Positions 1 to 13,057 of a stretch of DNA of 13,057 nucleotides are shown here, in pieces. Each line of letters begins with the position of its first letter. The first letter of the stretch is position 1. Origin of the DNA: a virus (taxonomy: Duplodnaviria; Heunggongvirae; Uroviricota; Caudoviricetes); IMG/VR virus record IMGVR_UViG_2778261569_000004; one strand, 5' to 3'. Both the position numbers and the translations under genes were made by a program. Below the pieces are notes generated by a model. The model saw only the letters and a program-made list of their open reading frames with translations. It had not been told where the DNA came from and ran no database searches.

Positions 1-69
1 ACGATACCGATACCAACGCACCAACTCTTCACGAAAATTAGCCCTGACAAGCTCAGCTATCGTACTCAT
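1..69 (-). CDS. Hypothetical phage protein, N-terminal part only (gene continues past the window start)
   Basis: ATG at 69..67 (minus) preceded by a GGAGG Shine-Dalgarno (plus 80-84, reverse complement); frame stays open to the window edge. Too short to assign a family. Confidence 0.3.
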   Translation of the reverse strand, partial: MSTIAELVRANFREELVRWYRYR

Positions 70-201
70 TTCTTAAAACCTCCTCAAACGCATTCTGACG
101 CATTTTTCATTCTCGCTGCTTATCGGTATACCTTGCACGTGCTTACCTCACCACAGAGCGATTGTGATGCCTTAAAAGCGATTTATTGAAGTGATATTTG
201 C

Positions 202-480
202 TTAATCGAAATTCTTTTCTTTGATTCCTGCGGCCCTGATGGCTTTCATTACTGCAATTACCGTTTTGTCACGCCCATCCTCATAACCCATCGCATAAGC
301 ACCTTCTTCACCATCTTTCCAAAGGTCGTCATTCGATTCGGGCCAGTCGATATCCAGTTCAATAGCAGAGCGCGATGCCTGCCATATCACCCAGGCAAAC
401 TCTTTTAATTCATCGTCTCCCGTGAACTGGCTTTTGTCTTTTGACCACCAGTTTTCAAACTGTCGGTAGCTATCGTTCAC
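202..480 (-). CDS. Hypothetical nin-region phage protein (about 92 aa)
   Basis: ORF track frame 202..495. I place the start at GTG 480..478 because a GGAGAGGG Shine-Dalgarno sits immediately upstream, whereas the TTG at 495 falls inside the terminator T-tract. Acidic, Trp-rich protein; no family recognised. Confidence 0.45.
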   Translation of the reverse strand: MNDSYRQFENWWSKDKSQFTGDDELKEFAWVIWQASRSAIELDIDWPESNDDLWKDGEEGAYAMGYEDGRDKTVIAVMKAIRAAGIKEKNFD

Positions 481-493
481 TTCCCTCTCCCCC

Positions 494-524
494 AAATAAA
501 AAGGCCTGCGATTACAGCAGGCCT
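494..524 (-). terminator. Rho-independent terminator (minus strand) downstream of the replication-gene cluster
   Basis: Perfect 8-bp stem AGGCCTGC/GCAGGCCT (502-509 / 517-524) with a 7-nt loop; on the minus strand it is followed by TTTTATTT (plus 494-501). Confidence 0.55.
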
Positions 525-549
525 GTTATTAACTCAGTGATGTAGATGG

Positions 550-819
550 TCATTGCTTCATCTCCCTTTCCATTTCATCAATGTCAACGTCATCAGGAAG
601 ATGGGAGCAATACGCCGCTATACCATGATGATTTATCTCATACCCTTTGAACGTTACCATCTGGCGCGTAATCTCAACTTCGTTCAGGAATCCGCCATCG
701 CATAACTGCCTGGCTATTTTCGATTTGGTCTGGATTATTGGTAGTGCCTGTTCTTTCAAAGCGTATGATATTTGCGCATCCCATGCCTTTTCGAGAATGG
801 CTAATTGTTTTTTATTCAT
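550..819 (-). CDS. Hypothetical protein translationally coupled to the helicase gene (89 aa)
   Basis: ATG at 819..817 overlaps the helicase stop codon (819-821) by one nucleotide; ORF track 550..819. No family recognised. Confidence 0.5.
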   Translation of the reverse strand: MNKKQLAILEKAWDAQISYALKEQALPIIQTKSKIARQLCDGGFLNEVEITRQMVTFKGYEINHHGIAAYCSHLPDDVDIDEMEREMKQ

Positions 820-2255
820 CAGAATCCTCCTTTCTTCTTGGACTGCGGTTCCTCGCGTTCACGTCGGCGCATTTCAGCAGACTGTTGGTCTGTGTCATAA
901 ATAGCGCCATTTGCCTGAATGCAATACACCGTGCCGGTATTGCCATGACGATTGAGACGAAGGATTAGTTCGGTTTCACCAGGTGGAACACTGTCATCAA
1001 AAGCACCTTCACGATGGATCCCCACCCAATAATCGCAATCCTGTTCAATCTGCCCTGTATCTCGTGAGTCACTTGGTAATGGGCGTTTATTGGTTCGGCT
1101 TTCCAGTGCGCGGTTAAGTTGCGTCAGAAGCACAACAACGCAATCAAGCTCTTTGGCAAGGTTCTTCAGTCCTTTGGTGATCATGCCGTAAGCAAGGTCG
1201 TTGCGATCGGCCTTCTCAGCGGTCATTAGTGTCAGGTAATCGACCAGAATCATGCCAACACATCCTTTTTCTCGCTTGATTCGACGGCTTTCGCTGACGA
1301 TTTGAGCCAGAGATAATCCCGGCGTGTCGTCGATGTAAAGCATGTCGATTTCACTCAAGCGATTGGCTGTTTCGATCGCCCTGTTGAAGTCACCATCGTA
1401 ATCACCCTGATAGCCGTCATCGGCGTCATTTGTCGCCGGAAGGTAAAAAATATTCGGGTTAACACCAGACTTCTGCCCTACCAGTTTTTCCAGTATCTGA
1501 TCACCTGGCATTTCAAGGCTGAACATCAGAGCGGGCTTTTTCTCATGCACTGCGCAATTGATTGCCATCTGGCTGTATAGCGTCGTTTTCCCCATCTTAG
1601 GGCGAGCGCCAATGACAAACAGAGAGCCTTTCACCAGACCTTTCGGTGACAGCATCCTGTCCAGCGATGGGATCCCTGTGCTCATTCCCCGTTGTTCGCC
1701 TGATGGGTCAAATCGCTTCTCAAGGTCGCTAACCCAGTCTTCCATGACCTCGCCAAATGAGCGAAGGCCGCGACGCGATCCGGTTTTTGCATGGTCTGTC
1801 AGTTGCGTGAAAATCGCCTGAATAGCTTCGTACTTCTGCGTCGCAGTCATTCCGTTGCGGGAATAGAGCAATTCCGTCGCTTCAGTCATGCGGTTGATGG
1901 CGTAGCGTTCCATTGCGGTTTCGCGAACCTGCATTGCATAGGCAACGATGTTTGCGGCGCTCGGCGTGTTCTTTGCGATCTCAGCGATATAAGCAAAACC
2001 GCCAACAGACGCCGTTAACGATTTACGCTCCAGTTCATCGAAAAGCGTCAGGCCATCTACTGGCTTTTGCTCCCGGTGCATTCTGGTTATTTCTTCGAAA
2101 AGGATTTTGTGTGGTCGGCTGTAAAATGAATCGGGCTTCAGCATCGCCAGAACTTTCTGGACGCGCTCACTGCTGTCATCATCCAGAAGCAATCCACCAA
2201 TCACCGCCTGCTCTGCCTCGATGCTATGGGGCGGCGCATAAAAATTATCGGTCAT
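819..2255 (-). CDS. Replicative DNA helicase, DnaB family (P22 gene 12-type)
   Basis: N-terminal motif PHSIEAEQAVIGGLLLDD typical of the DnaB N-terminal domain; Walker A GARPKMGKTT; Walker B-like ILVDYLTLM; overall RecA-like helicase layout. Start placed at ATG 2255 ([11 protein letters not shown]) with a GAGGGTGA Shine-Dalgarno upstream, rather than the GTG at 2270 used by the ORF track. Confidence 0.9.
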   Translation of the reverse strand: MTDNFYAPPHSIEAEQAVIGGLLLDDDSSERVQKVLAMLKPDSFYSRPHKILFEEITRMHREQKPVDGLTLFDELERKSLTASVGGFAYIAEIAKNTPSAANIVAYAMQVRETAMERYAINRMTEATELLYSRNGMTATQKYEAIQAIFTQLTDHAKTGSRRGLRSFGEVMEDWVSDLEKRFDPSGEQRGMSTGIPSLDRMLSPKGLVKGSLFVIGARPKMGKTTLYSQMAINCAVHEKKPALMFSLEMPGDQILEKLVGQKSGVNPNIFYLPATNDADDGYQGDYDGDFNRAIETANRLSEIDMLYIDDTPGLSLAQIVSESRRIKREKGCVGMILVDYLTLMTAEKADRNDLAYGMITKGLKNLAKELDCVVVLLTQLNRALESRTNKRPLPSDSRDTGQIEQDCDYWVGIHREGAFDDSVPPGETELILRLNRHGNTGTVYCIQANGAIYDTDQQSAEMRRREREEPQSKKKGGF

Positions 2256-3144
2256 CGTGTTCACCCTCACGAACTTTCAGGTAGGTATTGTCGTTAAGCA
2301 GGAAATCAAATCCCTTTTTGTGCCAGACGGTTCCGCGCTGATGGTTTGGGCGCTCTTCGAACATCCATCGGCAATTTTCGCCTACGTAGCTCAAATAATT
2401 TCTCCAGTCCTGCATCGTGAACCCATGCCCGTCAAGCTGGCGGGTTATCACTCCGGCTTTGCGCCAGAACGTTCGGATCTGGTTTTTACGCTTGTCATTC
2501 AGTGCGCGGATTTTTGGCGCTTCAGGAAGGATTTCGTGGTAAGCATCGACAACATCCTGACAGCTGACGGAAGGTTTTTTCTTGTCAGACTTTTTGTCTG
2601 CTGTGGCACTCTCTAATACGTCAGTATTAGAGATAATATTATTATATTCTTTATCTGTGGTAATTTGCTGGTAATCTGCTGGTACAGTATTGCTTGCAGG
2701 CATTGGTATTGCTGGCTTTGAGGTGGTAATTTGCTGGTAATCTGCTGGTACAAAATTTGACTGATAATCGTCATATTTCTCTACCGAGAAAACTGAGAAT
2801 TTACCGTGTGAAACCCAGTCAATCATGCCGAGTTTTTTGAACTTTCTAAGCAGGTACTGAACGCGATCTGGTTTGAGTCCTGTTTCAAACGCCAGAGAGT
2901 TTCTACCGCCAAGTAGCTTCCCTCTGCCTACCAGAATTTCTCCTGCGTCAGTCATTACATACTCAGGCGTATGCTTTGCTTTGAGGATTAAGTGAACCCA
3001 CAGATGCGCAGCTTCTGCGTCCTTGTAAAACGGCACATCCATAATTTTACGGTGCAGCAAGGCATACCCCTTACCGCTGCTTTGATGCGGTTGTTGTAGC
3101 CTTCTGGCCTCTCTGGCTTCGGCTAGATTAGATATGTTACTCAT
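2245..3144 (-). CDS. Replication initiator protein (lambda O / P22 gene 18 analogue) with origin iterons inside its coding sequence
   Basis: Sits between cII and the helicase as O does in lambdoid phages. Contains a direct-repeat iteron array plus an adjacent AT-rich tract (see repeat feature). AAGGAG Shine-Dalgarno before ATG 3144. The 3' end overlaps the helicase start by 11 nt. The protein is not obviously lambda-O-like by eye, so the family assignment rests on position and the iterons. Confidence 0.7.
2657..2753. repeat. Origin-of-replication iteron array (ori) inside the O-like gene
   Basis: Two perfect 30-bp direct repeats GTGGTAATTTGCTGGTAATCTGCTGGTACA at 2657-2686 and 2724-2753. Each holds two approximately 11-bp subunits GGTAAT(T/C)TGCTGG, with a degenerate copy GGTATTGCTGG at 2705-2716. 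An AT-rich tract (about 2615-2655) lies downstream in the O reading direction, as at ori-lambda. The repeats encode a duplicated [10 protein letters not shown] peptide in the initiator. Confidence 0.7.
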
Positions 3145-3283
3145 GACCTTTCTCCTTCTGCATCAGCTTCACTTTTTCCAACTCAGCCCGGAATCGACAA
3201 GGCTGCTTGAAGCTGGACAGGAAGCGATCACGTAGTATGTGTTTGTGAATTTTGTCCTGGTAAGGACTGAGTTGTTTTGTCAT
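3137..3283 (-). CDS. Putative small protein (48 aa) between cII and the initiator gene
   Basis: ATG at 3283..3281 with an AGGAG Shine-Dalgarno 7 nt upstream; translation [48 protein letters not shown]; stop overlaps the initiator start. Below the ORF-track size cut-off and unsupported by homology. Confidence 0.25.
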
Positions 3284-3317
3284 AATTACTCCTGTGGATT
3301 GATCCAGTCTTTCTACA

Positions 3318-3596
3318 TCAGGCCTCGAAGAATTCGCCGTTCTTCGGGGCTTTTTCTTTTGTCAGGATTCTGGCTACTTTCTTAGCCAGTTCCGCCAACT
3401 CCTCGTCTTCAACACCCCATTCAAGAACAGCCAGAAGCATTCCCATTTTGGGGATGAAGCTATCTTTCCATCGCGAAATTTGCGATTCATTAATCCCTAA
3501 CGCGTCGGCAACCTTTCGCTGACCACGTACAGCAATTCGATTCAGGATGTTGCTTGTAATTGCATTCGCTTTCTTGCGAGTACTTGTAAGTTGCAT
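3318..3596 (-). CDS. cII: CII transcriptional activator (lysogeny establishment)
   Basis: Recognised similarity to lambda CII, including the near-identical block SQISRWK...[13 protein letters not shown]. The translation-initiation region TAAGGAAATACTTACATATG matches the classic lambda cII ribosome-binding site, so the start is ATG 3596, not the upstream start in the ORF track. Confidence 0.85.
3323..3360 (+). terminator. Rho-independent terminator on the strand antisense to cII (oop-like terminator)
   Basis: Stem CCTCGAAGAA/TTCTTCGGGG (3323-3332 / 3340-3349, one G-U pair), 7-nt loop, then CTTTTTCTTTT (3350-3360). It lies on the plus strand inside the 3' end of minus-strand cII, the geometry of the lambda oop RNA terminator. 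Confidence 0.55.
3550..3563 (+). promoter_or_regulatory. CII-binding site TTGC-N6-TTGC (PRE-like establishment promoter -35 region)
   Basis: TTGCTTGTAATTGC on the plus strand inside the cII N-terminal codons, oriented to drive transcription antisense through cro towards cI, as lambda PRE does. The -10 element is not confidently identified. Confidence 0.5.
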
Positions 3597-3655
3597 ATGT
3601 AAGTATTTCCTTAACAAATAAGAAGTTATGCGCATCAAATTATGCGCGTTGTATT

Positions 3656-3698
3656 CCCGCATTTCGGCGGGAATGATGACCATGACTGTTAAAGAGCG
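3656..3698 (-). promoter_or_regulatory. nutR site (boxA plus boxB hairpin)
   Basis: On the minus strand just after the cro stop: boxA CGCTCTTTAACA (plus 3687-3698, reverse complement), then boxB hairpin CCCGC-CGAAAT-GCGGG (plus 3656-3671). The boxB sequence is identical to the one at nutL. Confidence 0.6.
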
Positions 3699-3704
3699 GT
3701 GTTA

Positions 3705-3899
3705 CTATTTGTTTTTCTTGTTGCTTGGGAAAGGACGAACTTCCTCTCCAATCACACTGCCATCAGGCTTTACCGTAACCATGATGTTACGGCCTGCCAG
3801 AATGGCCTTGCTGATAGCGCACTGGATTACACCAAAGTCACTGGCTGCTTTAGCCTGTCCATGGATTTTGGCGTAATCGGCAAGTGTCATTCGAATCAT
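3705..3899 (-). CDS. cro: Cro repressor
   Basis: Recognised similarity to lambda Cro (TLADYA..GQ.K.A.D.GV.Q.AI.KAI.AGR.I.....DGSV..EEV.PFPSNKK). Start placed at ATG 3899 with a GGAGAG Shine-Dalgarno 5 nt upstream. Divergent from cI across the operator region. Confidence 0.85.
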
Positions 3900-3929
3900 A
3901 TGCACTCTCCGTTATTAACCATGAACAAA

Positions 3930-3995
3930 GAATACTACAGGTATTCAAAGCAATCAATACTCAGGGTATTTTTAGTTTAAGTACCTTAGCTATTA
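3930..3995. promoter_or_regulatory. OR operator region: three 17-bp operators with divergent PR and PRM promoters
   Basis: Operators GAATACTACAGGTATTC (3930-3946) and CAATACTCAGGGTATTT (3955-3971) are palindromic; a degenerate third site AAGTACCTTAGCTATTA lies at 3979-3995. Centre spacings are 25 and 24 bp. PR candidate on the minus strand: -35 TTGATT, 17-bp spacer, -10 TATTCT. PRM candidate on the plus strand: -10 TAGAAT at 3994-3999, which places +1 at about the A of the cI ATG (leaderless; no Shine-Dalgarno before cI). Confidence 0.6.
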
Positions 3996-4005
3996 GAATT
4001 AAGCT

Positions 4006-4722
4006 ATGGAAAATAAAAAATCACTGACGACAGAACAGCTCGAAGACGCTAAGCGGCTTAAGGCTTTGTATGAGTCAAAAAAGAAAGAATTGGGAATAAC
4101 CCAATACTCAATCGCTGATGAACTGGGTATCACCCAAGGAGCGGTAGGGCATTATCTTAATGGCAGAAACGCGCTAAACGTTGAGGTCGCATCTGGTTTT
4201 GCACGTTTGTTGCAAGTCTCAATTGCTGATTTTAGCCAGTCAATTGCTGCCAAGGTTGCAGAACAGGCAGAAAGCCTTAAGAGCGATGCCAACGTAAGGT
4301 ATGCAGGGGAATACAGAGCAGGAAAGAGGTATCCGGTGTTAAGCAGTATCCAGGCTGGCTCGTGGTGTGAAGCATGCGAACCATACACCATTAAAGACAT
4401 AGATGTTTGGCTTGAGTCTGACGCGCATATTCAAGGTAATGCGTTCTGGCTTAAAGTGGAAGGTGATTCAATGACGGCACCGGTTGGGTTAAGCATTCCA
4501 GAGGGAACATTCGTTCTTTTCGATACCGGAAGGGAGGCGATCAACGGCAGCTTGGTCATAGCAAAACTTTCTGACTCTAACGAAGCAACATTCAAGAAGC
4601 TGATAATCGACGGCGGAAATAAATACCTCAAGGGACTTAATCCTGCATGGCCTCTCGTGCCAATCAATGGAAACTGCAAGATTATAGGCGTTGCAATTGA
4701 GACAAAACTAAGGCTGGTTTGA
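4006..4722 (+). CDS. cI: CI repressor (HTH DNA-binding domain plus LexA/S24-type autocleavage domain)
   Basis: Recognised similarity to lambda CI: N-terminal LTxEQLEDAKRLKALYE.KK.ELG..Q.S.AD..G and C-terminal FWL.VEGDSMTAP ... ATFKKLI (Ser/Lys dyad). Divergent from cro. Confidence 0.9.
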   Translation: MENKKSLTTEQLEDAKRLKALYESKKKELGITQYSIADELGITQGAVGHYLNGRNALNVEVASGFARLLQVSIADFSQSIAAKVAEQAESLKSDANVRYAGEYRAGKRYPVLSSIQAGSWCEACEPYTIKDIDVWLESDAHIQGNAFWLKVEGDSMTAPVGLSIPEGTFVLFDTGREAINGSLVIAKLSDSNEATFKKLIIDGGNKYLKGLNPAWPLVPINGNCKIIGVAIETKLRLV

Positions 4723-4739
4723 TCACGCAAGGGGCGATT

Positions 4740-5108
4740 ATGGTTGGAACCGCTATAGCAAGCTTTTTTGGGATGTTGGCAATCTCGACAATTTACGGCT
4801 TAGCGCATGCTTTTATTGCGAAATCTCTATCAGAAAAAATAAGCCAGGCTTGGGCGCATAGATCAGCTCGTTTCATGATTCTGGTGATCATAGCAATACA
4901 AGGGATATCTGCATTTATCCTCTATGGATCAAGCTTATACCTATTGTATCAAGGCGCGACATTTACGCCTTACACCAGTGATTACGGAACTCTATACGAT
5001 GGTAGTGAAGACATCACTGTGGCTTGGATCGTCTTTGGTTTATCTATGGCCGTGTCTGTTGTAGCAGACATCATTAAGGTAATTCTCGTCTTAACCTTCG
5101 CTGACTAA
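4740..5108 (+). CDS. Small integral membrane protein in the rex/sie position, co-transcribed with cI (candidate superinfection-exclusion or defence protein)
   Basis: ORF track frame 4719..5108; start placed at ATG 4740 with an AAGGGG Shine-Dalgarno, 18 nt after the cI stop. Three hydrophobic helices predicted by eye (about residues 1-25, 45-70 and 95-120). It occupies the lambda rexAB slot between cI and OL. No homologue recognised. Confidence 0.6.
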   Translation: MVGTAIASFFGMLAISTIYGLAHAFIAKSLSEKISQAWAHRSARFMILVIIAIQGISAFILYGSSLYLLYQGATFTPYTSDYGTLYDGSEDITVAWIVFGLSMAVSVVADIIKVILVLTFAD

Positions 5109-5193
5109 CCTATAATCCCGGCAGCAATAGCTATCGGGATCCACTTCACATATCCCGCATAAAAAGCACTGAACAAGCAGACACCGAAAAAAT

Positions 5194-5281
5194 AAATATC
5201 CTTTGTATTCATTTGCTTATCATTATTTCACCAAAAATAAATACCTTGGGTATTTACACAATAAAATACCTACAGTATTCT
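5194..5281 (+). promoter_or_regulatory. OL operator region and PL promoter
   Basis: Three 17-bp operators of the same family as OR: AAATATCCTTTGTATTC (5194-5210), AAATACCTTGGGTATTT (5239-5255) and AAATACCTACAGTATTC (5264-5280). PL candidate: -35 TTTACA (5253-5258), 17-bp spacer, -10 TATTCT (5276-5281), overlapping the operators as in lambda. Confidence 0.55.
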
Positions 5282-5326
5282 TTAGCCATCAGCAGGGCGC
5301 TGGAAGCCAAACGGAACAGATTGGCA

Positions 5327-5367
5327 GGCTCTTTAACATTGATGGGATTGTCCCGCCGAAATGCGGG
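5327..5367 (+). promoter_or_regulatory. nutL site (boxA plus boxB hairpin)
   Basis: boxA GGCTCTTTAACA (5327-5338) followed by boxB CCCGC-CGAAAT-GCGGG (5352-5367), identical to the boxB at nutR; lies in the leader between PL and N. Confidence 0.6.
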
Positions 5368-5475
5368 AACCAAAGAGTAGTTGGCTTTGGGGTGACGTGA
5401 AGTGCAGCTGCACGACGGCAACCGGAAGATAAGCACCCGGCGCGTCACCGCCAAAGTCAATCATCGGAGGTCAAC

Positions 5476-5748
5476 ATGACAGTAGTCATTACATATCTGG
5501 CTGACGATAACGCCAGAAATCGCCGCAGAGCACGCAGACAGGCTCAACGTGAACAGGCAATGCAAGAGCAGCGACTGGCACGAAAAATTGCGCTAAAGCT
5601 CTCTGGTTGCGTCAGAGCAGATAAAGCAGCATCACTCGGAAGCCTTTGCTGCAAGGAAGAAGATGAACGCAGTGGAAGTATTTGCCTGCCAAACGTAGCC
5701 ATTTACGCGGCAGGATACCGGAAATCAAAACAACTGACAGCGAGGTAA
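5476..5748 (+). CDS. N: Antitermination protein N (P22 gene 24-like)
   Basis: N-terminal arginine-rich motif NARNRRRARRQAQREQ (boxB RNA-binding ARM); C-terminus ...AIYAAGYRKSKQLTAR resembles my recollection of P22 gp24; GGAGG Shine-Dalgarno; first gene downstream of PL and nutL. Confidence 0.8.
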   Translation: MTVVITYLADDNARNRRRARRQAQREQAMQEQRLARKIALKLSGCVRADKAASLGSLCCKEEDERSGSICLPNVAIYAAGYRKSKQLTAR

Positions 5749-5751
5749 GTG

Positions 5752-5976
5752 ATGAATCAGACATACATTCCATCATGCTTGAGAAATCTGCCAAAGCAGA
5801 AAGCAAAGCCCCGCAAGCAAGCCATAAAGGACGCTAAGGCAGAGGTTATTGATCAAGCAATACAATTGCTCAGGGAGGAGTTAAGAAGTGGCAAGCTCGA
5901 AGGAATGATGATGCCCTATCAGCGCGGATATCTATCGGCGATTAGTAAGTTGGAAGTATTGAAGAGTGAATTATGA
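5752..5976 (+). CDS. Hypothetical early protein (74 aa)
   Basis: ATG 5752 with a GAGG Shine-Dalgarno, starting 4 nt after the N stop. Basic N-terminus, predicted helical. In the position of ral or kil-type genes but not recognisably similar. Confidence 0.45.
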   Translation: MNQTYIPSCLRNLPKQKAKPRKQAIKDAKAEVIDQAIQLLREELRSGKLEGMMMPYQRGYLSAISKLEVLKSEL

Positions 5977-6038
5977 ACTATCTGGAATTTCCGGATGGTT
6001 CATTGTTTTGGCAGCAAACCACTTATTTGAGGTGATGT

Positions 6039-6125
6039 ATGGAAGAAGAATTTGAAGAGTTCGAAGAGCATCCTCAGGATGTGATGGAACAATACCAGGA
6101 CTATCCGTATGACTACGACTATTGA
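6039..6125 (+). CDS. Putative very small acidic protein (28 aa)
   Basis: ATG 6039 preceded by GAGGTGA; translation MEEEFEEFEEHPQDVMEQYQDYPYDYDY. Below the ORF-track cut-off; speculative. Confidence 0.2.
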   Translation: MEEEFEEFEEHPQDVMEQYQDYPYDYDY

Positions 6126-6309
6126 TAAAAATCAATGGTGTGGACAATTCAAGCGATGCAATGGATGCAAGCTGCAATCGGAATGCATGGTTAAGCCTGA
6201 AGAAATGTTTCCTGTAATGGAAGATGGGGAATATGTCGATAAATGGGCAATACGAACGACGGCAATGATTGCCAGAGAACTTGGTAAACTGAACAACAAG
6301 GCTGCCTGA
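6109..6309 (+). CDS. Hypothetical small Cys-containing protein (66 aa)
   Basis: ORF track. Four cysteines in CGQFKRCNGCKLQSEC, a possible metal-binding knuckle. Ends just before a terminator. Confidence 0.4.
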   Translation: MTTTIDKNQWCGQFKRCNGCKLQSECMVKPEEMFPVMEDGEYVDKWAIRTTAMIARELGKLNNKAA

Positions 6310-6327
6310 TGGCGGCCTTTATTTTTG
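6298..6327 (+). terminator. Rho-independent terminator
   Basis: Stem AAGGCTGCC/GGCGGCCTT with a TGAT tetraloop, followed by TATTTTTGG. Confidence 0.6.
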
Positions 6328-6374
6328 GCATAAACAACAGAATAAACACAGCACTGAATTATTTGAGGTGAGAT

Positions 6375-6845
6375 ATGACAAAATCATGGAGCGTACCTTT
6401 TCCTGAATCAGAAACTGAACATGATGGAATGCCTGTTTTCTGGAGATTCCAAGCGACAGTTGAAGAAGATGGAATCAAAATATTCGCACTTCAATATATA
6501 GCTTTTCATCAGACAGATCATTATGCATGGTTGGTTCCTGCGCATTGGATTGTTAATTTTAAACCAGCACCAAATCAGTGGTTACAGGAATGGAAACAAA
6601 GGAGAAATAGATATGCAATTAAGAAAGTAGCAAAAAATGCCGAAAGATCTTTTGCATTCCCGACGAAGAAACTTGCCATTGAAAGTTTATTGCGCCGGAA
6701 GAAGTACCATTTAATGAGAATCAAACAAGATTTGGCTGTTGTATCAACTCTTGTTGATGGGATGAAGAATATTGATACATCAATACCAGATATTGAATAT
6801 AACTTTGGACACAACCAAGAAACAGAAAATTGGGTGTTTTATTAG
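6375..6845 (+). CDS. Hypothetical protein on a low-GC moron-like insert (156 aa)
   Basis: ATG 6375 with a GAGGTGA Shine-Dalgarno. A hand count over the first 300 nt gives roughly 37% G+C, against roughly 45% at the start of erf. Bracketed by the terminator at 6298-6327 upstream and by an inverted repeat (6860-6887) and terminator-like hairpin (6951-6974) downstream. No family recognised. Confidence 0.6.
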   Translation: MTKSWSVPFPESETEHDGMPVFWRFQATVEEDGIKIFALQYIAFHQTDHYAWLVPAHWIVNFKPAPNQWLQEWKQRRNRYAIKKVAKNAERSFAFPTKKLAIESLLRRKKYHLMRIKQDLAVVSTLVDGMKNIDTSIPDIEYNFGHNQETENWVFY

Positions 6846-7039
6846 TACGAATAAGCACTGTGTATTCATTCCAACGAGTGAATACACGGAGCAATGTCGC
6901 TCGTAACTAAACAGGAGCCGACTTGTTCTGATTATTGGAAATCTTCTTTGCCCTCCAGTGTGAGGGCCTTTTTATATGCATACCAATAACGCTTCACTCG
7001 AGGCGTTTTCGTTATGCAATCAAACAGAAGGAGCATCCT

Positions 7040-7210
7040 ATGCAACAGTTCGCTATTGCAGGGGCGGCATCGGTTCGCCCTTTCAACCCGATTTTATCGG
7101 TACAGCATTCACGAAAAAATATTTTAACCGGAGCAGACTTTAAACAACCAAGAATGAAAAGCTTGCTCGAAAAGCTTTGGGATATTTTGAAACAACAAGG
7201 CCGCCCATGA
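7040..7210 (+). CDS. Hypothetical small protein (56 aa)
   Basis: ATG 7040 with a GAAGGAG Shine-Dalgarno 6 nt upstream; in frame with the longer TTG-initiated ORF in the track (6935), which I consider an over-extension. Confidence 0.4.
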   Translation: MQQFAIAGAASVRPFNPILSVQHSRKNILTGADFKQPRMKSLLEKLWDILKQQGRP

Positions 7211-7377
7211 GTTTTACAGATAACTGGTCAGACGAAGAATTCATTCGTCAGATGAAAGAATTAATCGGTAACGAAGGAGATATTCATGTCACTTGCAACC
7301 ACCGTGAAGGAGAGCAAGTTACAGAGACGCATGTACACGCAGCAGGCGTTAATGTATCGCCAGAAGGGAGATCGTGA
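7207..7377 (+). CDS. Hypothetical small protein (56 aa), directly upstream of erf (Arf-like position)
   Basis: ATG 7207 overlaps the stop of the preceding gene (ATGA). Its position matches P22 arf, but that is not verifiable by eye. Confidence 0.35.
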   Translation: MSFTDNWSDEEFIRQMKELIGNEGDIHVTCNHREGEQVTETHVHAAGVNVSPEGRS

Positions 7378-7466
7378 AGGTGTTCGCGTATTTTTAAATG
7401 CGGCAAAGACTGAAGTATTAAATCAGCGTTATTTCCTTGGGCCATGTCCATTCTGAGAACAATCAT

Positions 7467-8072
7467 ATGAGCAAAGAATTTTACGCAAGACTGGCAGCTA
7501 TTCAGGAAAATCTGAACGCGCCCAAGAATCAGTACAACTCATTCGGTAAATATAAATACAGAAGCTGCGAAGACATTCTTGAAGGCGTTAAGCCGTTACT
7601 GAATGGTCTGTTTTTATCAATCAGCGATGAAGTTGTGTTGATTGGTAATCGGTATTACGTGAAAGCCACGGCAACTATTACCGATGGCGAAAACAGTCAT
7701 ACGGCAACCGCTCTTGCACGAGAGGAAGAAAGCAAGAAAGGAATGGATTCTGCACAAGTTACGGGAGCTACAAGCTCTTATGCACGCAAGTATTGCCTCA
7801 ATGGTTTGTTCGGCATTGATGATGCGAAAGATGCAGATACAGACGAGCATAAACATCAGCAGAACGCAGCAGCAAAGCAATCAAAACCATCACCTACACC
7901 TGAACAGGTTCTAAAAGCATTCACTGACGCAGCATTGCAGAAAAACACCGTAGAAGAGCTTAAACAGGCGTTCGCCAAAGCGTGGAAGATGCTCGAAGGC
8001 ACACCGGAGCAGCACAAAGCGCAGGACGTTTACAACATCAGACGAGACGAATTAGAAGGAGCGGCTGCTTAA
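7467..8072 (+). CDS. erf: Erf-family single-strand annealing recombinase
   Basis: N-terminal region MSKEFYARLAAIQENLNAPKNQYNSFGKYKYRSCEDILEGVKPLL matches my recollection of P22 Erf closely. Start at ATG 7467, not the upstream start in the ORF track. Confidence 0.8.
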   Translation: MSKEFYARLAAIQENLNAPKNQYNSFGKYKYRSCEDILEGVKPLLNGLFLSISDEVVLIGNRYYVKATATITDGENSHTATALAREEESKKGMDSAQVTGATSSYARKYCLNGLFGIDDAKDADTDEHKHQQNAAAKQSKPSPTPEQVLKAFTDAALQKNTVEELKQAFAKAWKMLEGTPEQHKAQDVYNIRRDELEGAAA

Positions 8073-8455
8073 TGGCACATTCGATTACTGTAAGACTAAA
8101 CAAGCCCGCAAGAGAGTTTCAGGCCGGGGAAAATATCGGATTCAACATCCGTGCTGGCGTTCAGTATTACGATCGCCAGACAAAAAAGAAAGAATGGACA
8201 AACTACAACGCCGTTGTATTTGCCAAGCCGGGAGCGCAAGCGGATTACTACCGTAGTGTTCTTGTTGAAGGTGGCATTGTAGAAATTACCGGAGAAAACA
8301 TCAGGGTTGATGTTTATCAGGGGCAAAATGGTCAATCAATCACTCTTGAATTACTGAATGCAAAGATTGGATTTGCAGCTTCAGGAAATGGCCCGCAGCA
8401 GCAAAGTAGTAACCAGCAGAACACCCCTGTATACGACGATTCCATCCCATTCTGA
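8072..8455 (+). CDS. Putative ssDNA-binding protein with an SSB-type C-terminal tail (128 aa)
   Basis: ATG 8072 overlaps the erf stop (TAATG). C-terminus ...GNGPQQQSSNQQNTPVYDDSIPF has a Gln/Asn-rich linker ending in DDSIPF, mirroring the E. coli SSB tail (DDDIPF). The N-terminal region is not canonical SSB by eye, so the OB-fold assignment is inferred. Confidence 0.55.
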   Translation: MAHSITVRLNKPAREFQAGENIGFNIRAGVQYYDRQTKKKEWTNYNAVVFAKPGAQADYYRSVLVEGGIVEITGENIRVDVYQGQNGQSITLELLNAKIGFAASGNGPQQQSSNQQNTPVYDDSIPF

Positions 8456-8478
8456 TTTAGAAAAATAAGGATTTAATT

Positions 8479-8772
8479 ATGCCAGCGCCTCTGTATGGTG
8501 CGGATGACCCGCGCCGCTGTTCCGGCAATTCCGTATCGGAGGTGCTGGATAAATTCAGGAAAAATTACGACCGGATAATGTCGCTACCGCAGGAAACAAA
8601 AGAGGAAAAGGAATTTCGCCACTGCGTATGGCTTGCAGAGAAAGAAGAACGCGAGCGAATTTACCAGACATCAATCCGACCATTCCGCAAAGCCACATAT
8701 ACCCACTTCCCTGAAATTGACCCGCGCCTGCGTAATTACCGCTCACGCTATGGCGCTATCAGTAATAACTGA
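8479..8772 (+). CDS. Hypothetical early protein (97 aa); size and position compatible with an Abc2-like anti-RecBCD protein
   Basis: ORF track. Lies downstream of erf, where P22 carries abc1 and abc2. The Abc2 assignment is positional and from memory only. Confidence 0.4.
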
Positions 8773-8782
8773 GGAATTTACC

Positions 8783-8950
8783 ATGAGAGGACTTGCATAC
8801 AATCCCAGCATTCTTCCGGCAGAAATGATTATTCGCCAGCGCGTAAAGCCAATGCCATCGAGAGAGGAATTACTTAAGAGAAATTCTTTTCCGTCAGTAA
8901 ATCAAAACAAATATCTGAATGCGATGTTGCGTAAAGGAGGCAAGCAGTGA
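8783..8950 (+). CDS. Hypothetical small protein (55 aa)
   Basis: ATG 8783 with a GAGGA Shine-Dalgarno; same frame as the longer ORF in the track. Confidence 0.35.
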
Positions 8951-9246
8951 GTGTATGTCTTATTGATAAACGTCGACGTGGGCAACAAATACCATCTGTT
9001 GAAATGCCGAATCACACATGGTTTTGCGTACTTGATATCGATGGTATGGATACGTTGGTTGACACTCGTCATTACTGCGATACCGCAACAGCTACTCCGG
9101 CGAAAGCAAAGAAAATTGCTGCTCTGATAGAAAACTGGACTCCACCTGATGGTTGGTGCAATGGGAATGATCGAGATTGGCATGAAAAAATGAAGGGCTA
9201 TATCTGCGATTTCTTACGTAAATGCAACGGATTCAGGGTGATGTGA
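8947..9246 (+). CDS. Hypothetical protein (99 aa)
   Basis: GTG 8947 with a strong AAGGAGG Shine-Dalgarno 8 nt upstream; overlaps the preceding stop (GTGA). No family recognised. Confidence 0.45.
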
Positions 9247-9247
9247 C

Positions 9248-9802
9248 ATGAACAAGATTGACTATCAGGCACTGCGTGCCAAGGCAGAAAAAGCAACGTG
9301 TGGTGAGTGGTCGCTCGAATATGGAGAGGAGAGATTTGATGCTGGTGATGCGCTAATTCATCGTGAAGTTGTTGGATATCTTCCCATTTGCAGAATTGAA
9401 GGAGCGCATCCTGAAAGCGGTTTCGATGAAGATTTCCAGATGGAACAGCAGGCCAATGCTGAATTTATTGCTGCCTTTAATCCAAAGGTTGCTTTGGCAC
9501 TGCTGGATGAACGGGAAAGAAACCAGCAATACATCAAACGCCGCGACCAGGAGAACGAGGATATTGCGCTAACGGTAGGGAAGCTGCGCGTTGAGCTTGA
9601 AGCAGAAAAACAGCGGGCAAAAGTTCTATTTATGGAAAATGCTCGGCTTAAGTCAGGCATAGCCGGTCTGATACACCTCGGTATTCGATATGCAGATGTT
9701 GAGGTCATGAAAATTGCTGGAGATGCCCAGCTTTCTACCCCATGCACTGACAGCATCATAAACAGCATTGCAACAGGCATTCGCATCAAAGGAGGTGAGT
9801 AA
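9248..9802 (+). CDS. Hypothetical protein with a coiled-coil segment (184 aa); possibly Ead/Ea22-like
   Basis: ORF track. The N-terminus QALRAKAEKATCGEW resembles a motif I associate with prophage Ead/Ea22-like proteins; the central region ERERNQQYIKRRDQENEDIALTVGKLRVELEAEKQRAKV looks coiled-coil. Confidence 0.45.
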   Translation: MNKIDYQALRAKAEKATCGEWSLEYGEERFDAGDALIHREVVGYLPICRIEGAHPESGFDEDFQMEQQANAEFIAAFNPKVALALLDERERNQQYIKRRDQENEDIALTVGKLRVELEAEKQRAKVLFMENARLKSGIAGLIHLGIRYADVEVMKIAGDAQLSTPCTDSIINSIATGIRIKGGE

Positions 9803-9978
9803 TGCGTGTGGCATGTATCGGCTTGTTACCGTACCCGACTCGTTTTTGGGCTTCTGCGCTAATTGCAAAGCCGCATGTCCTGATGGCTGACAACATCATC
9901 CCGGCACCAAAGCGCCGCCATACCGGTATTGCATCGGCACGACGAGCAGCAAAGAAACGCAGGAGAGCAAAACGATGA
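9802..9978 (+). CDS. Putative small basic protein (58 aa)
   Basis: ATG 9802 overlaps the upstream stop (TAATG) and its own stop overlaps the next start (ATGA). Translation MRVACIGLLPYPTRFWASALIAKPHVLMADNIIPAPKRRHTGIASARRAAKKRRRAKR. Below the ORF-track cut-off. Confidence 0.3.
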   Translation: MRVACIGLLPYPTRFWASALIAKPHVLMADNIIPAPKRRHTGIASARRAAKKRRRAKR

Positions 9979-10163
9979 AAAACCGTAAAGCAAAGATTCT
10001 GTTAGTTCGTAGAAACGCTCCTGGCGTCTGGCAGTGGGTGAGACTCAGCAACCGACGGGTGGGGTTAATGAAACATTACGGGATGATGGATTGTGGTTTT
10101 TGCAAAAAGCCCAGCGCGGCGCAAAACCGCTGGAAAAACCACTTGCGTACTAAAGGAGAGTGA
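9975..10163 (+). CDS. Hypothetical small protein (62 aa)
   Basis: ORF track; start coupled to the upstream gene. Confidence 0.4.
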   Translation: MKNRKAKILLVRRNAPGVWQWVRLSNRRVGLMKHYGMMDCGFCKKPSAAQNRWKNHLRTKGE

Positions 10164-10164
10164 T

Positions 10165-10374
10165 ATGGCTATTGCCGCAAGTTACACCATGCATCTCTAT
10201 TGTGACTGCCGCCAGTGTACGGAAGGTGTATATCCAGTGCCAGACTTCGGAGAGTATATCGGCACGTCATGGGCTGGTTGTGCAAAAGAGGCGCGTAAGG
10301 ATGGCTGGCGAATAAGCAAAGACAAAACACGTGCTTTTGCGCCTGGGCATAAAGTTTTGAGGATTAACAAATGA
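10165..10374 (+). CDS. Hypothetical small Cys-rich protein (69 aa)
   Basis: ATG 10165 preceded by AAGGAGAG; contains C-x-C-x2-C ... C (HLYCDCRQC...AGC). Confidence 0.4.
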   Translation: MAIAASYTMHLYCDCRQCTEGVYPVPDFGEYIGTSWAGCAKEARKDGWRISKDKTRAFAPGHKVLRINK

Positions 10375-10697
10375 CCACTATTACCAGAGAACAAGCTCTG
10401 AAAATTATTGAGGCAGCCGATGAGGTTATTAGTGCGCTTGCCGGAACTAACGAGGATGTTCACCCTGGTAGCGATAACATGCTACGCCTGTGGGATGACC
10501 TGAATGACCGTTACGCGCCGCCGGAAGTTGTGCGTGAGCTGGCACGGATTGCGCTGGCATCGTTGGAAGCAAAACCAATAGGTGCTTCCACATTGCAGAA
10601 CAGCAAGTTGACGGCACAAGTGACTACCTCAAGGATGGAGAATGGCCTATTGATAATGGGACAATTGAAGTATACGCCGCCCCTCCAGTGCCAGTAG
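10371..10697 (+). CDS. Hypothetical protein (108 aa)
   Basis: ATG 10371 overlaps the upstream stop (ATGA); ORF track. Confidence 0.45.
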   Translation: MTTITREQALKIIEAADEVISALAGTNEDVHPGSDNMLRLWDDLNDRYAPPEVVRELARIALASLEAKPIGASTLQNSKLTAQVTTSRMENGLLIMGQLKYTPPLQCQ

Positions 10698-11173
10698 TAC
10701 CTGAAGAAAAACCAATGCCTAACCCTCTTAGCATGTACGCGGTCGATGCTGTTGCCGCTATTGCAGAGGTGAGAGGCTGGAACGCCTGCCGCGCCGCCAT
10801 GCTTCATGGTGCCGAACCTGTAAGCCAAACTTACAAGTCACAACACACGCAGTTTGAACAAGTTGCTGACCTCTACGAAATGCAATTTGATGACGGTCGC
10901 ACTTGTGCCTTTCACACTGATGCGCAAAAGGCTGCGCAATGGCTTCAGGCATGCGACGGAAACAGGGTTCAGGAATACGTGAAGCTGGAGCGATTGCGTA
11001 ATGCGCTATCGGGCAACTCTCCGGTAACTCCGGATGGTTGGGTTATGGTGCCGAAGGAACCAACTCAGGCCATGATTAAAGCGTGGCTATCAGAGATTGC
11101 TAACTTTCGCGGTCATGCTGCTGGTTACAGGGCTGCTCTTGAGGCAGCACCACAGGAGGTTAACCGTGGCTAA
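10688..11173 (+). CDS. Hypothetical protein (161 aa from a GTG start; frame open upstream to 10538)
   Basis: ORF track, GTG start with no clear Shine-Dalgarno. Protein-like sequence (DGEWPIDNGTIEVYAAPPVP) continues upstream in the same frame, overlapping the previous gene. Confidence 0.4.
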   Translation: MPVVPEEKPMPNPLSMYAVDAVAAIAEVRGWNACRAAMLHGAEPVSQTYKSQHTQFEQVADLYEMQFDDGRTCAFHTDAQKAAQWLQACDGNRVQEYVKLERLRNALSGNSPVTPDGWVMVPKEPTQAMIKAWLSEIANFRGHAAGYRAALEAAPQEVNRG

Positions 11174-11450
11174 CCTGCAACTTGCCGTCAAAGGTGAATA
11201 CTTCGATGCCATGATTCGCGGAGAGAAAACAGAAGAGTATCGCCTGTGTAATGACTACTGGAATAAGCGAATTATGTTCCGGGAGTATGACCGCCTGATT
11301 ATCACAAAGGGATATCCGAAGCGCGACGACTCCAGCCGCAGAATAGACGTCCCGTATGACGGATATGAAATCAAGACAATCACACATCCCCACTTCGGCG
11401 ATAAACCGGTAAAGGTGTTCGCGATAAATGTGAATATCGGCAATGAATAA
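11166..11450 (+). CDS. Hypothetical protein, possibly ASCH/PUA-like (DUF3850-like), about 95 aa
   Basis: GTG 11166 preceded by AGGAGG. The pattern KGEYFDAMIRGEKTEEYRLCND ... resembles my recollection of DUF3850/ASCH phage proteins. The ORF track gives a longer upstream start at 11097. Confidence 0.4.
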   Translation: MANLQLAVKGEYFDAMIRGEKTEEYRLCNDYWNKRIMFREYDRLIITKGYPKRDDSSRRIDVPYDGYEIKTITHPHFGDKPVKVFAINVNIGNE

Positions 11451-11485
11451 CAACCCTCGCATTTGCGGGGATTTCTTTTATCTGA

Positions 11486-11509
11486 ACTCGCTACGGCGAG
11501 TTTTGTTTT
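11486..11509 (+). terminator. Rho-independent terminator
   Basis: Stem ACTCGC/GCGAGT with a TACG loop, followed by TTTTGTTTT. Confidence 0.5.
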
Positions 11510-11821
11510 ATGGAGATGATTATGGTCTGTTCAACATTCAACCATCTAACGTTACAGAAATACCAGCCAGACCCTGAAGATTTATGCTCACTGTGTGGCG
11601 GAAATCATGGTAAAGCCGCCATGATCGAATGTAATGACAAAATCCACATTTGCCTTAATTGCGTTGATGTCCTCGTTGATATCAAAAATGAGAGAGAAGA
11701 TAAAAAGCGTAGCGAGGCTATTCGCGCCTTAGATTCATGGATGCGAGATGGGTATAGTGCTGCGCAAATTTATGACTTAGCAATATCAAAAGGCGAAATA
11801 CCAGGAGTACGCATCGAATAA
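11510..11821 (+). CDS. Hypothetical zinc-ribbon-like protein (103 aa)
   Basis: ORF track. Two Cys pairs, CSLCGG and CLNC, about 20 residues apart. An alternative start at ATG 11522 is better placed relative to the GGAG at 11512-11515. Confidence 0.45.
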   Translation: MEMIMVCSTFNHLTLQKYQPDPEDLCSLCGGNHGKAAMIECNDKIHICLNCVDVLVDIKNEREDKKRSEAIRALDSWMRDGYSAAQIYDLAISKGEIPGVRIE

Positions 11822-11861
11822 GACATAACCGATATTCGAATTGAAGAACTGAAAGAACACC

Positions 11862-11888
11862 AAGCCGCCTGATGGCGGTTTCTTTTTG
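11862..11888 (+). terminator. Rho-independent terminator
   Basis: Stem AAGCCGCC/GGCGGTTT with a TGAT tetraloop, followed by CTTTTTG. Confidence 0.6.
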
Positions 11889-11902
11889 CCTGGAGAATTA
11901 AG

Positions 11903-12094
11903 ATGACCGATACCAGCCTGATTCCTGAGAAAGAAGTGATGAACAAGCTCGGTGTTTCATCACGTCAGACAATCTGGAACTATACCAAACGACACGGATT
12001 TCCGAAGCCAGTCAGAACCCACCCCAAATCATACCTTCGTGAAGCTGTTGAAGGGTGGATTCTTAACGGTGGCGTTAATCAGAAATGCTCCTGA
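11903..12094 (+). CDS. xis: AlpA-type excisionase / DNA-binding regulator
   Basis: AlpA-family pattern (EVMNKLGVSSRQTIWNYTKRHGFPKPVR...W). The 3' end overlaps the integrase 3' end, convergently. Confidence 0.55.
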   Translation: MTDTSLIPEKEVMNKLGVSSRQTIWNYTKRHGFPKPVRTHPKSYLREAVEGWILNGGVNQKCS

Positions 12095-12499
12095 TGTGCC
12101 AGAACAATTTATCAGCGTGAAGCTCATACGCTTTGCGCTGAGCCTCTATCCAATCGTGTTTATTGTATACGGACATTATCCCGCCAAGTTCATGACCGAG
12201 CATTCGCTCAGTAACATGAGGCTCGACATTCATCTCGGACAGACGTGTAACAAGCGTTCTTCTGAAATCATGTGTTCGCCAGTAACCTAGATCCATCCCT
12301 CCCCTTATTCTATTTACGAATCGGTTGGCTGCAGCGATGCTGATCGGTTTGTTTATGTCTTCTCCAGGGAAAAGAACATCATTGTACGTTGTCATGGCCT
12401 TTTCGAGAAAAGGCTTAATTTGTTCGAAGATTGGACGACGGATAACATTACCCATCTTGCTATGCTCTTTCGGTACGGTCCATACGTTGTCCAGCAGGT
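12075..12499 (-). pseudogene. int: Tyrosine integrase, C-terminal catalytic fragment only; N-terminal part displaced by an IS insertion
   Basis: Catalytic motifs HDFRRT and LGHELGGIMSVYNKHDW (Tyr nucleophile) present. The reading frame runs upstream without a stop to the IS terminus at 12500; the conserved box I Arg and the N-terminal domain are absent from this side. Confidence 0.75.

Positions 12500-13057
<558 letters not shown>

Follow-up and report, generated by a model that had tools for sequence, protein, structure and literature searches.

In phage lambda, the gene that immediately precedes xis on the pL transcript is orf55 (lambdap35), which occupies a slot in the exo-xis region with two tandem hairpins and a Shine-Dalgarno (SD) sequence upstream and a hairpin block downstream. 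The order in lambda is the ea8.5 stop codon, TAACAAT, a CCTCGC hairpin, the GAACTCGC hairpin, GGAG, orf55, the GCCGCCTGATGGCGG hairpin, the cII/pI box and xis. Here we describe the same slot in a 13,057 nt stretch of viral DNA (the window; IMG/VR record IMGVR_UViG_2778261569_000004) which, judged by its gene content, comes from a lambdoid prophage and represents its early-left (pL) arm. In lambda the cargo of the slot is orf55, whereas in the window it is a gene for a 99 amino acid (aa) protein (11522-11821, + strand) of the 933W L0063/PHROG 3680 family with a predicted ClpX-type zinc-binding domain, followed by the last 16 codons of orf55 as non-coding sequence.

Several other lambdoid phages have all or part of this layout. 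HK022 is arranged as lambda is, and its record (X51962) labels the first hairpin "tL4 terminator". HK140 also has the same layout; its third hairpin is annotated as a rho-independent terminator, and the AlpA-type gene that comes next is the one also found in the window. P22 and HK620 have the right block only, which the P22 record (L06296) labels t'I, noting its identity to lambda 29106-29165. The lambda hairpins have already been listed, with matching sequences, as the predicted terminators t3, t4 and t5 (Bloch et al., 2014; PMC4195576, Table 4), and our literature search, whose coverage did not extend to the classic lambda terminator papers, returned nothing on tL3/tL4. The Stx phages 933W (L0063) and VT2-Sakai carry an orthologous gene (~95-97% identical) with flanks that are alike up to hairpin 3; 933W differs in having another xis/int module, in the same orientation, and in the annotation of L0063 as four codons longer.

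Our explanation of the locus, to which we assign a probability of roughly 0.7, is that the L0063-family gene sits in an accessory slot between inherited terminator blocks, is expressed by N-mediated antitermination and encodes a mimic of the ClpX N-domain, the last part being held with low confidence. The gene would be an exchangeable accessory ("ea"/exo-xis region) gene in the last lambdoid pL slot, just upstream of the excision module, and the blocks on either side would be inherited lambdoid backbone, the left consisting of the tandem pair (t3/t4) and then the SD sequence, the right of t'I (t5).

Conserved terminator-bearing blocks around the slot

The left block (11448-11520, + strand) comprises TAACAA, hairpin 1, hairpin 2 and the SD sequence, and is common to lambda, HK022, HK140 and 933W. 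The right block (11826-11892, + strand) matches lambda 29106-29165 and is common to the same four phages and to P22 and HK620. Conservation of the blocks is ~90-100% across the phages that share them. When the region 11400-11950 was compared with phage records by blastn, most matches covered only 11444-11515 and 11826-11892, and alignments of both blocks are near-invariant with abrupt edges and unchanged hairpins. On the left, column identity is ~0.45 until position -36 (counted from 11484), where it climbs to 0.75-1.0, and it drops again after the SD sequence; on the right, it drops to ~0.45 just past the U-tract of hairpin 3.

All three hairpins are terminator-like on the + strand. Hairpin 1 (11455-11480; stem-loop 11455-11470) is CCUCGC-AUUU-GCGGGG followed by AUUUCUUUUA, with a folding free energy (dG) of -10.1 kcal/mol and a z value of -3.5, z being calculated against shuffled sequences. 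Hairpin 2 (11484-11508; stem-loop 11484-11503) is GAACUCGC-UACG-GCGAGUUU followed by UGUUUU (dG -11.9 kcal/mol, z -4.8), and none of 200 shuffled versions was as stable. Hairpin 3 (11862-11889; stem-loop 11862-11881) is AAGCCGCC-UGAU-GGCGGUUU followed by CUUUUU (dG -13.0 kcal/mol, z -2.8). A U-rich tract lies directly 3' of each stem: AUUUCUUUUA, (UUU)UGUUUU and (UUU)CUUUUU, respectively. A first-pass annotation of this DNA had placed a terminator immediately before the gene, its T-tract abutting the start codon, and another after it. The second is confirmed by hairpin 3, which is on the same strand as the gene, and the first corresponds to the hairpin at 11484-11503. This, however, is one of a tandem pair with the hairpin at 11455-11470 and, as the start codon is most likely at 11522 (see below), its U-tract abuts the SD sequence and not the start codon.

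The hairpins recur wherever the blocks do. Their minimum free energy was at or below -7 kcal/mol at 107 of 125 occurrences for hairpin 1, 125 of 125 for hairpin 2 and 94 of 95 for hairpin 3, and all three are retained across more than 90 independent phage loci. The whole window has 26 terminator-like sites, compared with 12.9 +/- 3.3 in shuffled sequences. The arrangement of hairpins and gene is far from chance. Changes in the hairpins between loci are one-sided (G-U to A-U) or occasional mismatches, the blocks being too similar for covariation. By alignment, the window hairpins are orthologous to lambda t3, t4 and t5: hairpin 1 aligns with HK022 tL4 (X51962; lambda predicted t3), hairpin 2 with lambda predicted t4 and hairpin 3 with lambda/P22 t'I (L06296; lambda predicted t5). 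The position is shared as well, the slot being the final one in the pL operon, with the excision module downstream of it. The window differs from lambda and P22 in that its t'I is followed by an AlpA-type gene, with int transcription converging on it, and we ascribe a function to it on the strength of its identity to theirs.

Some other candidate features of the blocks were rejected. A weak predicted helix between the U-tract of hairpin 1 and the SD sequence loses its only C-G pair in the lambda-type variant. Rfam returned nothing at gathering scores on either block: its full-length but very weak match of isrK, a Gifsy-1 prophage sRNA, to 11822-11885 (+ strand), at 15 bits (gathering score 50; E 0.88), was put down to chance and probably reflects the terminator hairpin, and its Leu-leader and rsmX matches on the left block were likewise judged to be chance. 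We also observed that the hairpins at 6298-6319 (after ral) and 11862-11881 (before xis) share the core GCC(G/T)CCTGATGGCGG, which could be coincidence or a duplicated module.

The contents of the slot were surveyed with an exact-pattern scan of IMG/VR for hairpin 2, which found 120 loci and, with the reference loci, gave 127 occurrences of the left block. At 84 of these, orf55 lies between the blocks (139-145 nt). The L0063-family gene is there alone in eight (322 nt), four of which are the window and loci fetched by similarity, and it is accompanied by an intact orf55 with its own SD sequence in four more (474 nt; loci L012, L015, L099 and L113). At the remaining 31 the right block was out of reach, owing to other cargo or truncated contigs. 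In the window, the 3' remnant of orf55 (11822-11872, + strand), its last 16 codons and stop, follows the stop codon of the L0063-family gene in frame as the non-coding sequence DITDIRIEELKEHQAA, and the junction between the two has an AGA microhomology. Comparison of these states indicates that the one found in the window and 933W is a deletion derivative of the tandem gene-plus-orf55 state. The presence of "a portion of orf55" in 933W has been noted previously (Donaldson, 2021).

The neighbors of the blocks are as variable as the cargo. At least eight unrelated sequences occur upstream of the left block, and at least five sequences downstream of the right block, including the lambda xis with its pI box, an AlpA-type gene, a 933W-type xis and an HK022-type open reading frame (ORF). 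Each cargo occurs with several upstream and downstream neighbors, which indicates that the cargo and both neighbors assort independently. Because upstream sequence, cargo and downstream sequence assort in this way and the block edges are abrupt, the blocks, as judged from these alignments, fall at mosaic joints. It is an established idea, reportedly set out in the HK620 and HK97 genome papers, that the junctions of lambdoid modules are marked by conserved "boundary sequences".

Two further observations concern the right side of the slot. In P22 (eaG; L005 1294-1473) and HK620 (hkaD; L006 1294-1473) a different protein, of 59 aa and with two CxxC pairs (CPKC...CCDC), is encoded before t'I; small, putatively zinc-binding proteins recur in the slot upstream of t'I. 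In addition, three cargo contexts have kept the 35 nt before the t'I hairpin, with (G)TAACC as the left limit each time (window 11826-11861; P22, L005 1491-1530; lambda 29130-29165, our locus L007). These 35 nt are coding in orf55 and non-coding after the L0063-family gene and after P22 eaG, and the stretch may either belong functionally to the element or mark a site at which recombination has repeatedly ended.

These features bear on the strongest alternative to our explanation, that the blocks have been kept mainly for roles other than termination, either as recombination joints ("boundary sequences") or as elements for RNA stability or processing in the read-through pL transcript. The abrupt end of conservation at both block edges, the independent assortment of cargo and neighbors, and the retention of the 35 nt before hairpin 3 with a constant left limit, even though they are non-coding in the window and in P22, would all be expected from it. 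We nonetheless think it rather unlikely, since all three hairpins have a canonical stem and U-tract on the transcribed strand and are called terminators by database records and ARNold predictions. The two roles are also compatible with each other.

Expression of the L0063-family gene

The L0063-family gene is on the pL strand, ~6.2 kb downstream of a pL-like promoter (TTTACA-17-TATTCT; 5253-5281, + strand; a consensus match only) that lies downstream of the cI-like gene. Between this promoter and the gene start there are plus-strand terminator-like sites starting at 5973, 6298, 6950, 6988, 11455 and 11484. A nutL-like site (5328-5368, + strand), so named by resemblance only, consists of GCTCTTTAACA (5328-5338) and the hairpin UCCCGC-CGAAAU-GCGGGA (5351-5368), which we take to be boxA and a boxB-like element from their resemblance to these motifs. 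The N antiterminator gene itself (90 aa; 5476-5748, + strand) matches PF25694 (N_peptide) at 56 bits against a cutoff of 27.9 (E 5e-15). A consensus scan found no sigma-70-like promoter in 11300-11525, which includes 225 nt upstream of the gene, even at 8 of 12 matches, and there is no space between the U-tract of hairpin 2 and the SD sequence.

Since the arm has an N gene, a nutL-like site and earlier terminator-like sites, and no promoter-like site near the gene, the most likely route of expression appears to be N-dependent read-through from pL, which would be off while the repressor holds pL. The gene would then be read as a delayed-early gene, by N-modified polymerase on the pL transcript after inactivation of the repressor, and the three hairpins would stop RNA polymerase unmodified by N before the gene and before xis. 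The first-pass annotation had proposed read-through of this kind, with silence in the lysogen, or else transcription from an unrecognized internal promoter. The former is likely from the features listed above, but the argument from terminators particular to this gene does not stand, as the property would be generic to distal pL genes and to this slot in lambda too. The latter found no support in the promoter scan, in which no site in 11300-11525 reached 8 of 12 matches.

It had also been suggested that the terminators insulate this particular gene and time its expression to induction, that is, that the hairpins on its two sides are a device dedicated to it. Hairpins do lie directly on both sides of the gene, with no promoter-like site upstream, and these features speak for the idea. 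The same blocks, however, flank orf55 in lambda, HK022 and HK140, and elsewhere they enclose both genes in tandem. The right terminator travels with at least five downstream modules and, in P22 and HK620, with other cargo. Moreover, distal genes would already be N-dependent owing to terminator-like sites further up the pL strand, of which there are at least four, so that N-dependence would be common to every gene distal to the first pL terminator and not specific to the L0063-family gene. We consequently regard a dedicated device as quite improbable and do not retain the claim of insulation.

Marginally less probable again is a moron: the gene would then be an autonomous cassette that has a promoter and a terminator to itself and is expressed, to the benefit of the lysogen, while the prophage is repressed. 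The resemblance to morons is real, in that a facultative small gene is present or absent between conserved neighbors, as an inserted cassette would be, and is followed by a terminator. The gene is also found in 316 of 5426 complete Escherichia coli genomes (~6%), and the flanks in about half. It differs from morons in having no promoter of its own detected by the consensus scan, since no promoter-like sequence was seen in 11300-11521 even at relaxed stringency. Between the U-tract of hairpin 2 and the SD sequence there is also no room for one, and the SD sequence is part of the shared backbone block.

A predicted free-standing ClpX-type zinc-binding domain

The ORF at 11510-11821 encodes a protein containing ...DLCSLCGGNHGK...IHICLNCVD.... 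The first-pass annotation was correct that this is a gene with a Cys motif, as the translated ORF and its family homologs attest. Its start is most likely the ATG at 11522 (99 aa) and not position 11510 (103 aa), for five reasons: PGAP begins WP_000227131.1 there, the alignment to the PHROG 3680 profile sets in only at residue 5 of the 103-aa version, homologs from other genera align to the Met at 11522, a GGAG SD sequence (11513-11516, + strand) is situated 5 nt upstream, and the sequence as far as ~11520 belongs to the shared backbone block, which is non-coding in lambda.

The family is small and narrowly distributed. A word-indexed search found 31 clusters, all in Enterobacteriaceae, and when 1.84 billion representatives were searched exhaustively with a profile, no more than 30 proteins reached E <= 1e-3. 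No function has been assigned to PHROG 3680, and our literature search found no paper mentioning L0063. Intact copies of the gene are present in 309 E. coli genomes, as well as in 933W (L0063) and VT2-Sakai, and full-length homologs of 27-60% identity, in which the four Cys and the N- and C-terminal motifs are kept, occur in Klebsiella, Enterobacter and metagenomes. Two features set the family apart: an invariant YQPDPEDL motif that precedes the first Cys and, at the C-terminus, the conserved tail ...IYDAI..GKIP..RI(D/E). This conservation, together with an AlphaFold2 (AF2) model that is confident in the core, makes it very improbable that the ORF is a chance or decaying frame with no functional gene, even in a prophage that shows decay elsewhere (int broken by IS1203, an EaA-like pseudogene).

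The first-pass annotation had called the protein zinc-ribbon-like. Our analyses point to a different fold, a ClpX-type C4 zinc-binding domain (ZBD) at residues ~20-58 (11579-11695, + strand; Cys codons at 11585, 11594, 11651 and 11660). The only invariant Cys residues are C22, C25, C44 and C47 (99-aa numbering), which do not vary among 22 sequences with identities as low as 24%; a fifth, C37, does. Their CxxC-18-CxxC spacing and the motif CSxCG...IC..CVD match E. coli ClpX. Pfam zf-C4_ClpX (PF06689) was the top match for all 17 family members compared, though below the cutoff, and full-length relatives of ~100 aa with the same architecture score above the Pfam cutoff (P0043, 43.3 bits; P0045, 32; P0049, 29.5; P0038, 28.4). 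ClpX ZBD chains were the only consistent sequence matches in the PDB, and NCBIfam matches were limited to the N-termini of ClpX models. Profile-profile comparison with hhalign likewise favors homology of the family to canonical ClpX-type domains, with the caveat given below.

Structure prediction for the Cys motif is compatible with this assignment. A first AF2 model, from a shallow alignment, had a predicted local distance difference test (pLDDT) score of 69 and a Foldseek search with it was empty. With a deeper alignment the mean pLDDT was 82, and ~89-95 over residues 20-60. This model has two short strands (one at 42-44), a helix at 45-75 that opens at the second CxxC, a short helix and the conserved C-terminal tail. 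Superposed on the ClpX ZBD 2ds5_A, it gave 2.1 A over 38 columns with 34% identity (TM 0.69, target-normalized; Foldseek E 1.8). The predicted fold is of a zinc-binding Cys type, as had been anticipated, but its topology is probably that of a treble clef and not that of a ribbon. In a ribbon both zinc knuckles would sit in beta-hairpins of a three-stranded sheet, whereas the second CxxC opens a 30-residue helix in the AF2 model, and the sole family signal is that of the ClpX ZBD, which is a treble clef. On the basis of these models and profiles we assign the domain to the ClpX-type C4 zinc-binding domains, with probable treble-clef topology and predicted zinc binding. Two other phage zinc-finger proteins that we considered, phi24B "gp05" and Ea8.5 (Donaldson, 2021), are different proteins.

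Compared with the N-domain of ClpX (PF06689; PDB 1OVX, 2DS5-2DS8), the window protein has the same C4 pattern, the same 18-residue spacing and, in the AF2 model, a helix starting from the second CxxC. Unlike ClpX, it is free-standing with no AAA+ module, has YQPDPEDL before the first Cys and has a long helix and C-terminal tail after the domain. The distant homolog P0043 likewise comes from a prophage early-left arm, where AlpA and int follow a few genes further on, a location that supports a role in the phage lifecycle.

Prophage context and a possible role

The window from 1 to 12499 is 99.9% identical to a prophage at sbcB of E. coli O111 strains. Its gene order on the + strand is cI, N, ral, erf, abc2, ea22-like, ASCH, the L0063-family gene and AlpA-xis, with int convergent; several small ORFs and an EaA-like pseudogene lie between the ea22-like and ASCH genes on the same strand. 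The cI-like repressor gene (4006-4722, + strand) is of the LexA family, and a phage replication protein is encoded at 2245-3144. The upstream neighbor of the slot is an ASCH-domain gene (11166-11450, + strand), whose TAA stop codon (11448-11450) is the first triplet of the left block, and the next gene on the pL transcript after the slot is an AlpA-type excisionase/regulator gene (11903-12094, + strand). The excision region therefore differs from that of lambda in its AlpA-type xis and convergent int, and the window has no cII-type TTGC-N6-TTGC pI box. PADLOC found no defense-system match for the L0063-family protein, the ASCH protein or two other proteins of the pL arm.

The tyrosine integrase gene is represented by its 3' part (12075-12499, - strand), cut by an insertion sequence (IS) element. 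The DNA from ~12500 to the end of the window is IS1203/IS629 (IS3-family) and not int, with the junction near 12487-12500; in intact relatives int runs on. As its int is interrupted, the prophage of the source strain is probably unable to excise. A further sign of decay is seen in the EaA-like gene upstream of the ASCH gene (10371-11170), which has an internal stop and is annotated by PGAP as a pseudogene in the near-identical O111 prophage. The int gene overlaps the 3' end of the AlpA-type gene by 20 nt. Between its stop codon and the t'I hairpin the minus strand has no good terminator, so that transcription of int would pass through the xis-like gene in antisense. It may end at the reverse side of the t'I hairpin (11862-11881), which on the minus strand is followed by a poorer U-rich run. 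Elsewhere in the window there is a strong terminator-like hairpin (3320-3352, + strand) antisense to the 3' end of cII, where lambda has its oop RNA terminator.

As to what the L0063-family protein might do, the ClpX N-domain is a dimeric treble clef that docks the adaptors SspB and RssB and the substrates MuA and FtsZ. Lambda O is a ClpXP substrate recognized through the ClpX N-domain, and ClpXP governs the stability of lambdoid replication and regulatory proteins. By analogy, the L0063-family protein could be a free-standing mimic of the dimeric ClpX N-domain that disturbs recognition of clients and adaptors by host ClpXP early in lytic growth, acting either as a decoy or through mixed dimers with the host ClpX N-domain. 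Made early after induction, such a copy would divert ClpXP from its N-domain-dependent clients and adaptors (SspB, RssB, FtsZ and possibly the phage's own O-like replication initiator). We put this forward tentatively, as a possibility of low probability. Our literature search found nothing relevant on phage-encoded ClpX-type zinc fingers.

A precedent is CsfB (Gin) of Bacillus subtilis, which is likewise a small free-standing protein, a dimeric treble-clef zinc protein whose nearest structural counterpart is the N-domain of ClpX and which acts as an anti-sigma factor. CsfB differs in that it was absent among the profile and PDB matches of the L0063-family protein, and no sequence relationship between the two was detected.

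A number of points weigh against our explanation of the locus, in whole or in part. The CsfB precedent indicates, by analogy, that a similar dimer can serve a role unrelated to ClpXP. The window protein itself falls below the Pfam cutoff (15.6 against 27 bits), and the hhalign comparison of the family profile with canonical ClpX-type domains (98.6% probability, E 1.4e-15, 45 columns) is possibly flattered, as it was with the family's own profile that most of those domains had been recruited. Foldseek searches of the PDB and BFVD returned generic small zinc fingers and no match at E <= 0.001. Hairpins as conserved as these leave no compensatory changes to be seen, and we infer terminator activity, N-dependence and silence in the lysogen alike from sequence.

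The terminator arrangement adds nothing new, being the architecture of the lambda exo-xis region and already predicted in print; what the slot does is illustrate how terminator-bearing conserved blocks mark the sites at which lambdoid phages exchange accessory genes. The fresh lead is the unstudied small ClpX-N-domain-like protein that it carries here. If the proposed mimicry is true, Shiga-toxin phages such as 933W would carry a strategy, not described before, for acting on an AAA+ protease of the host, and a phage decoy of the ClpX docking domain could affect induction and replication, and hence Shiga-toxin output.

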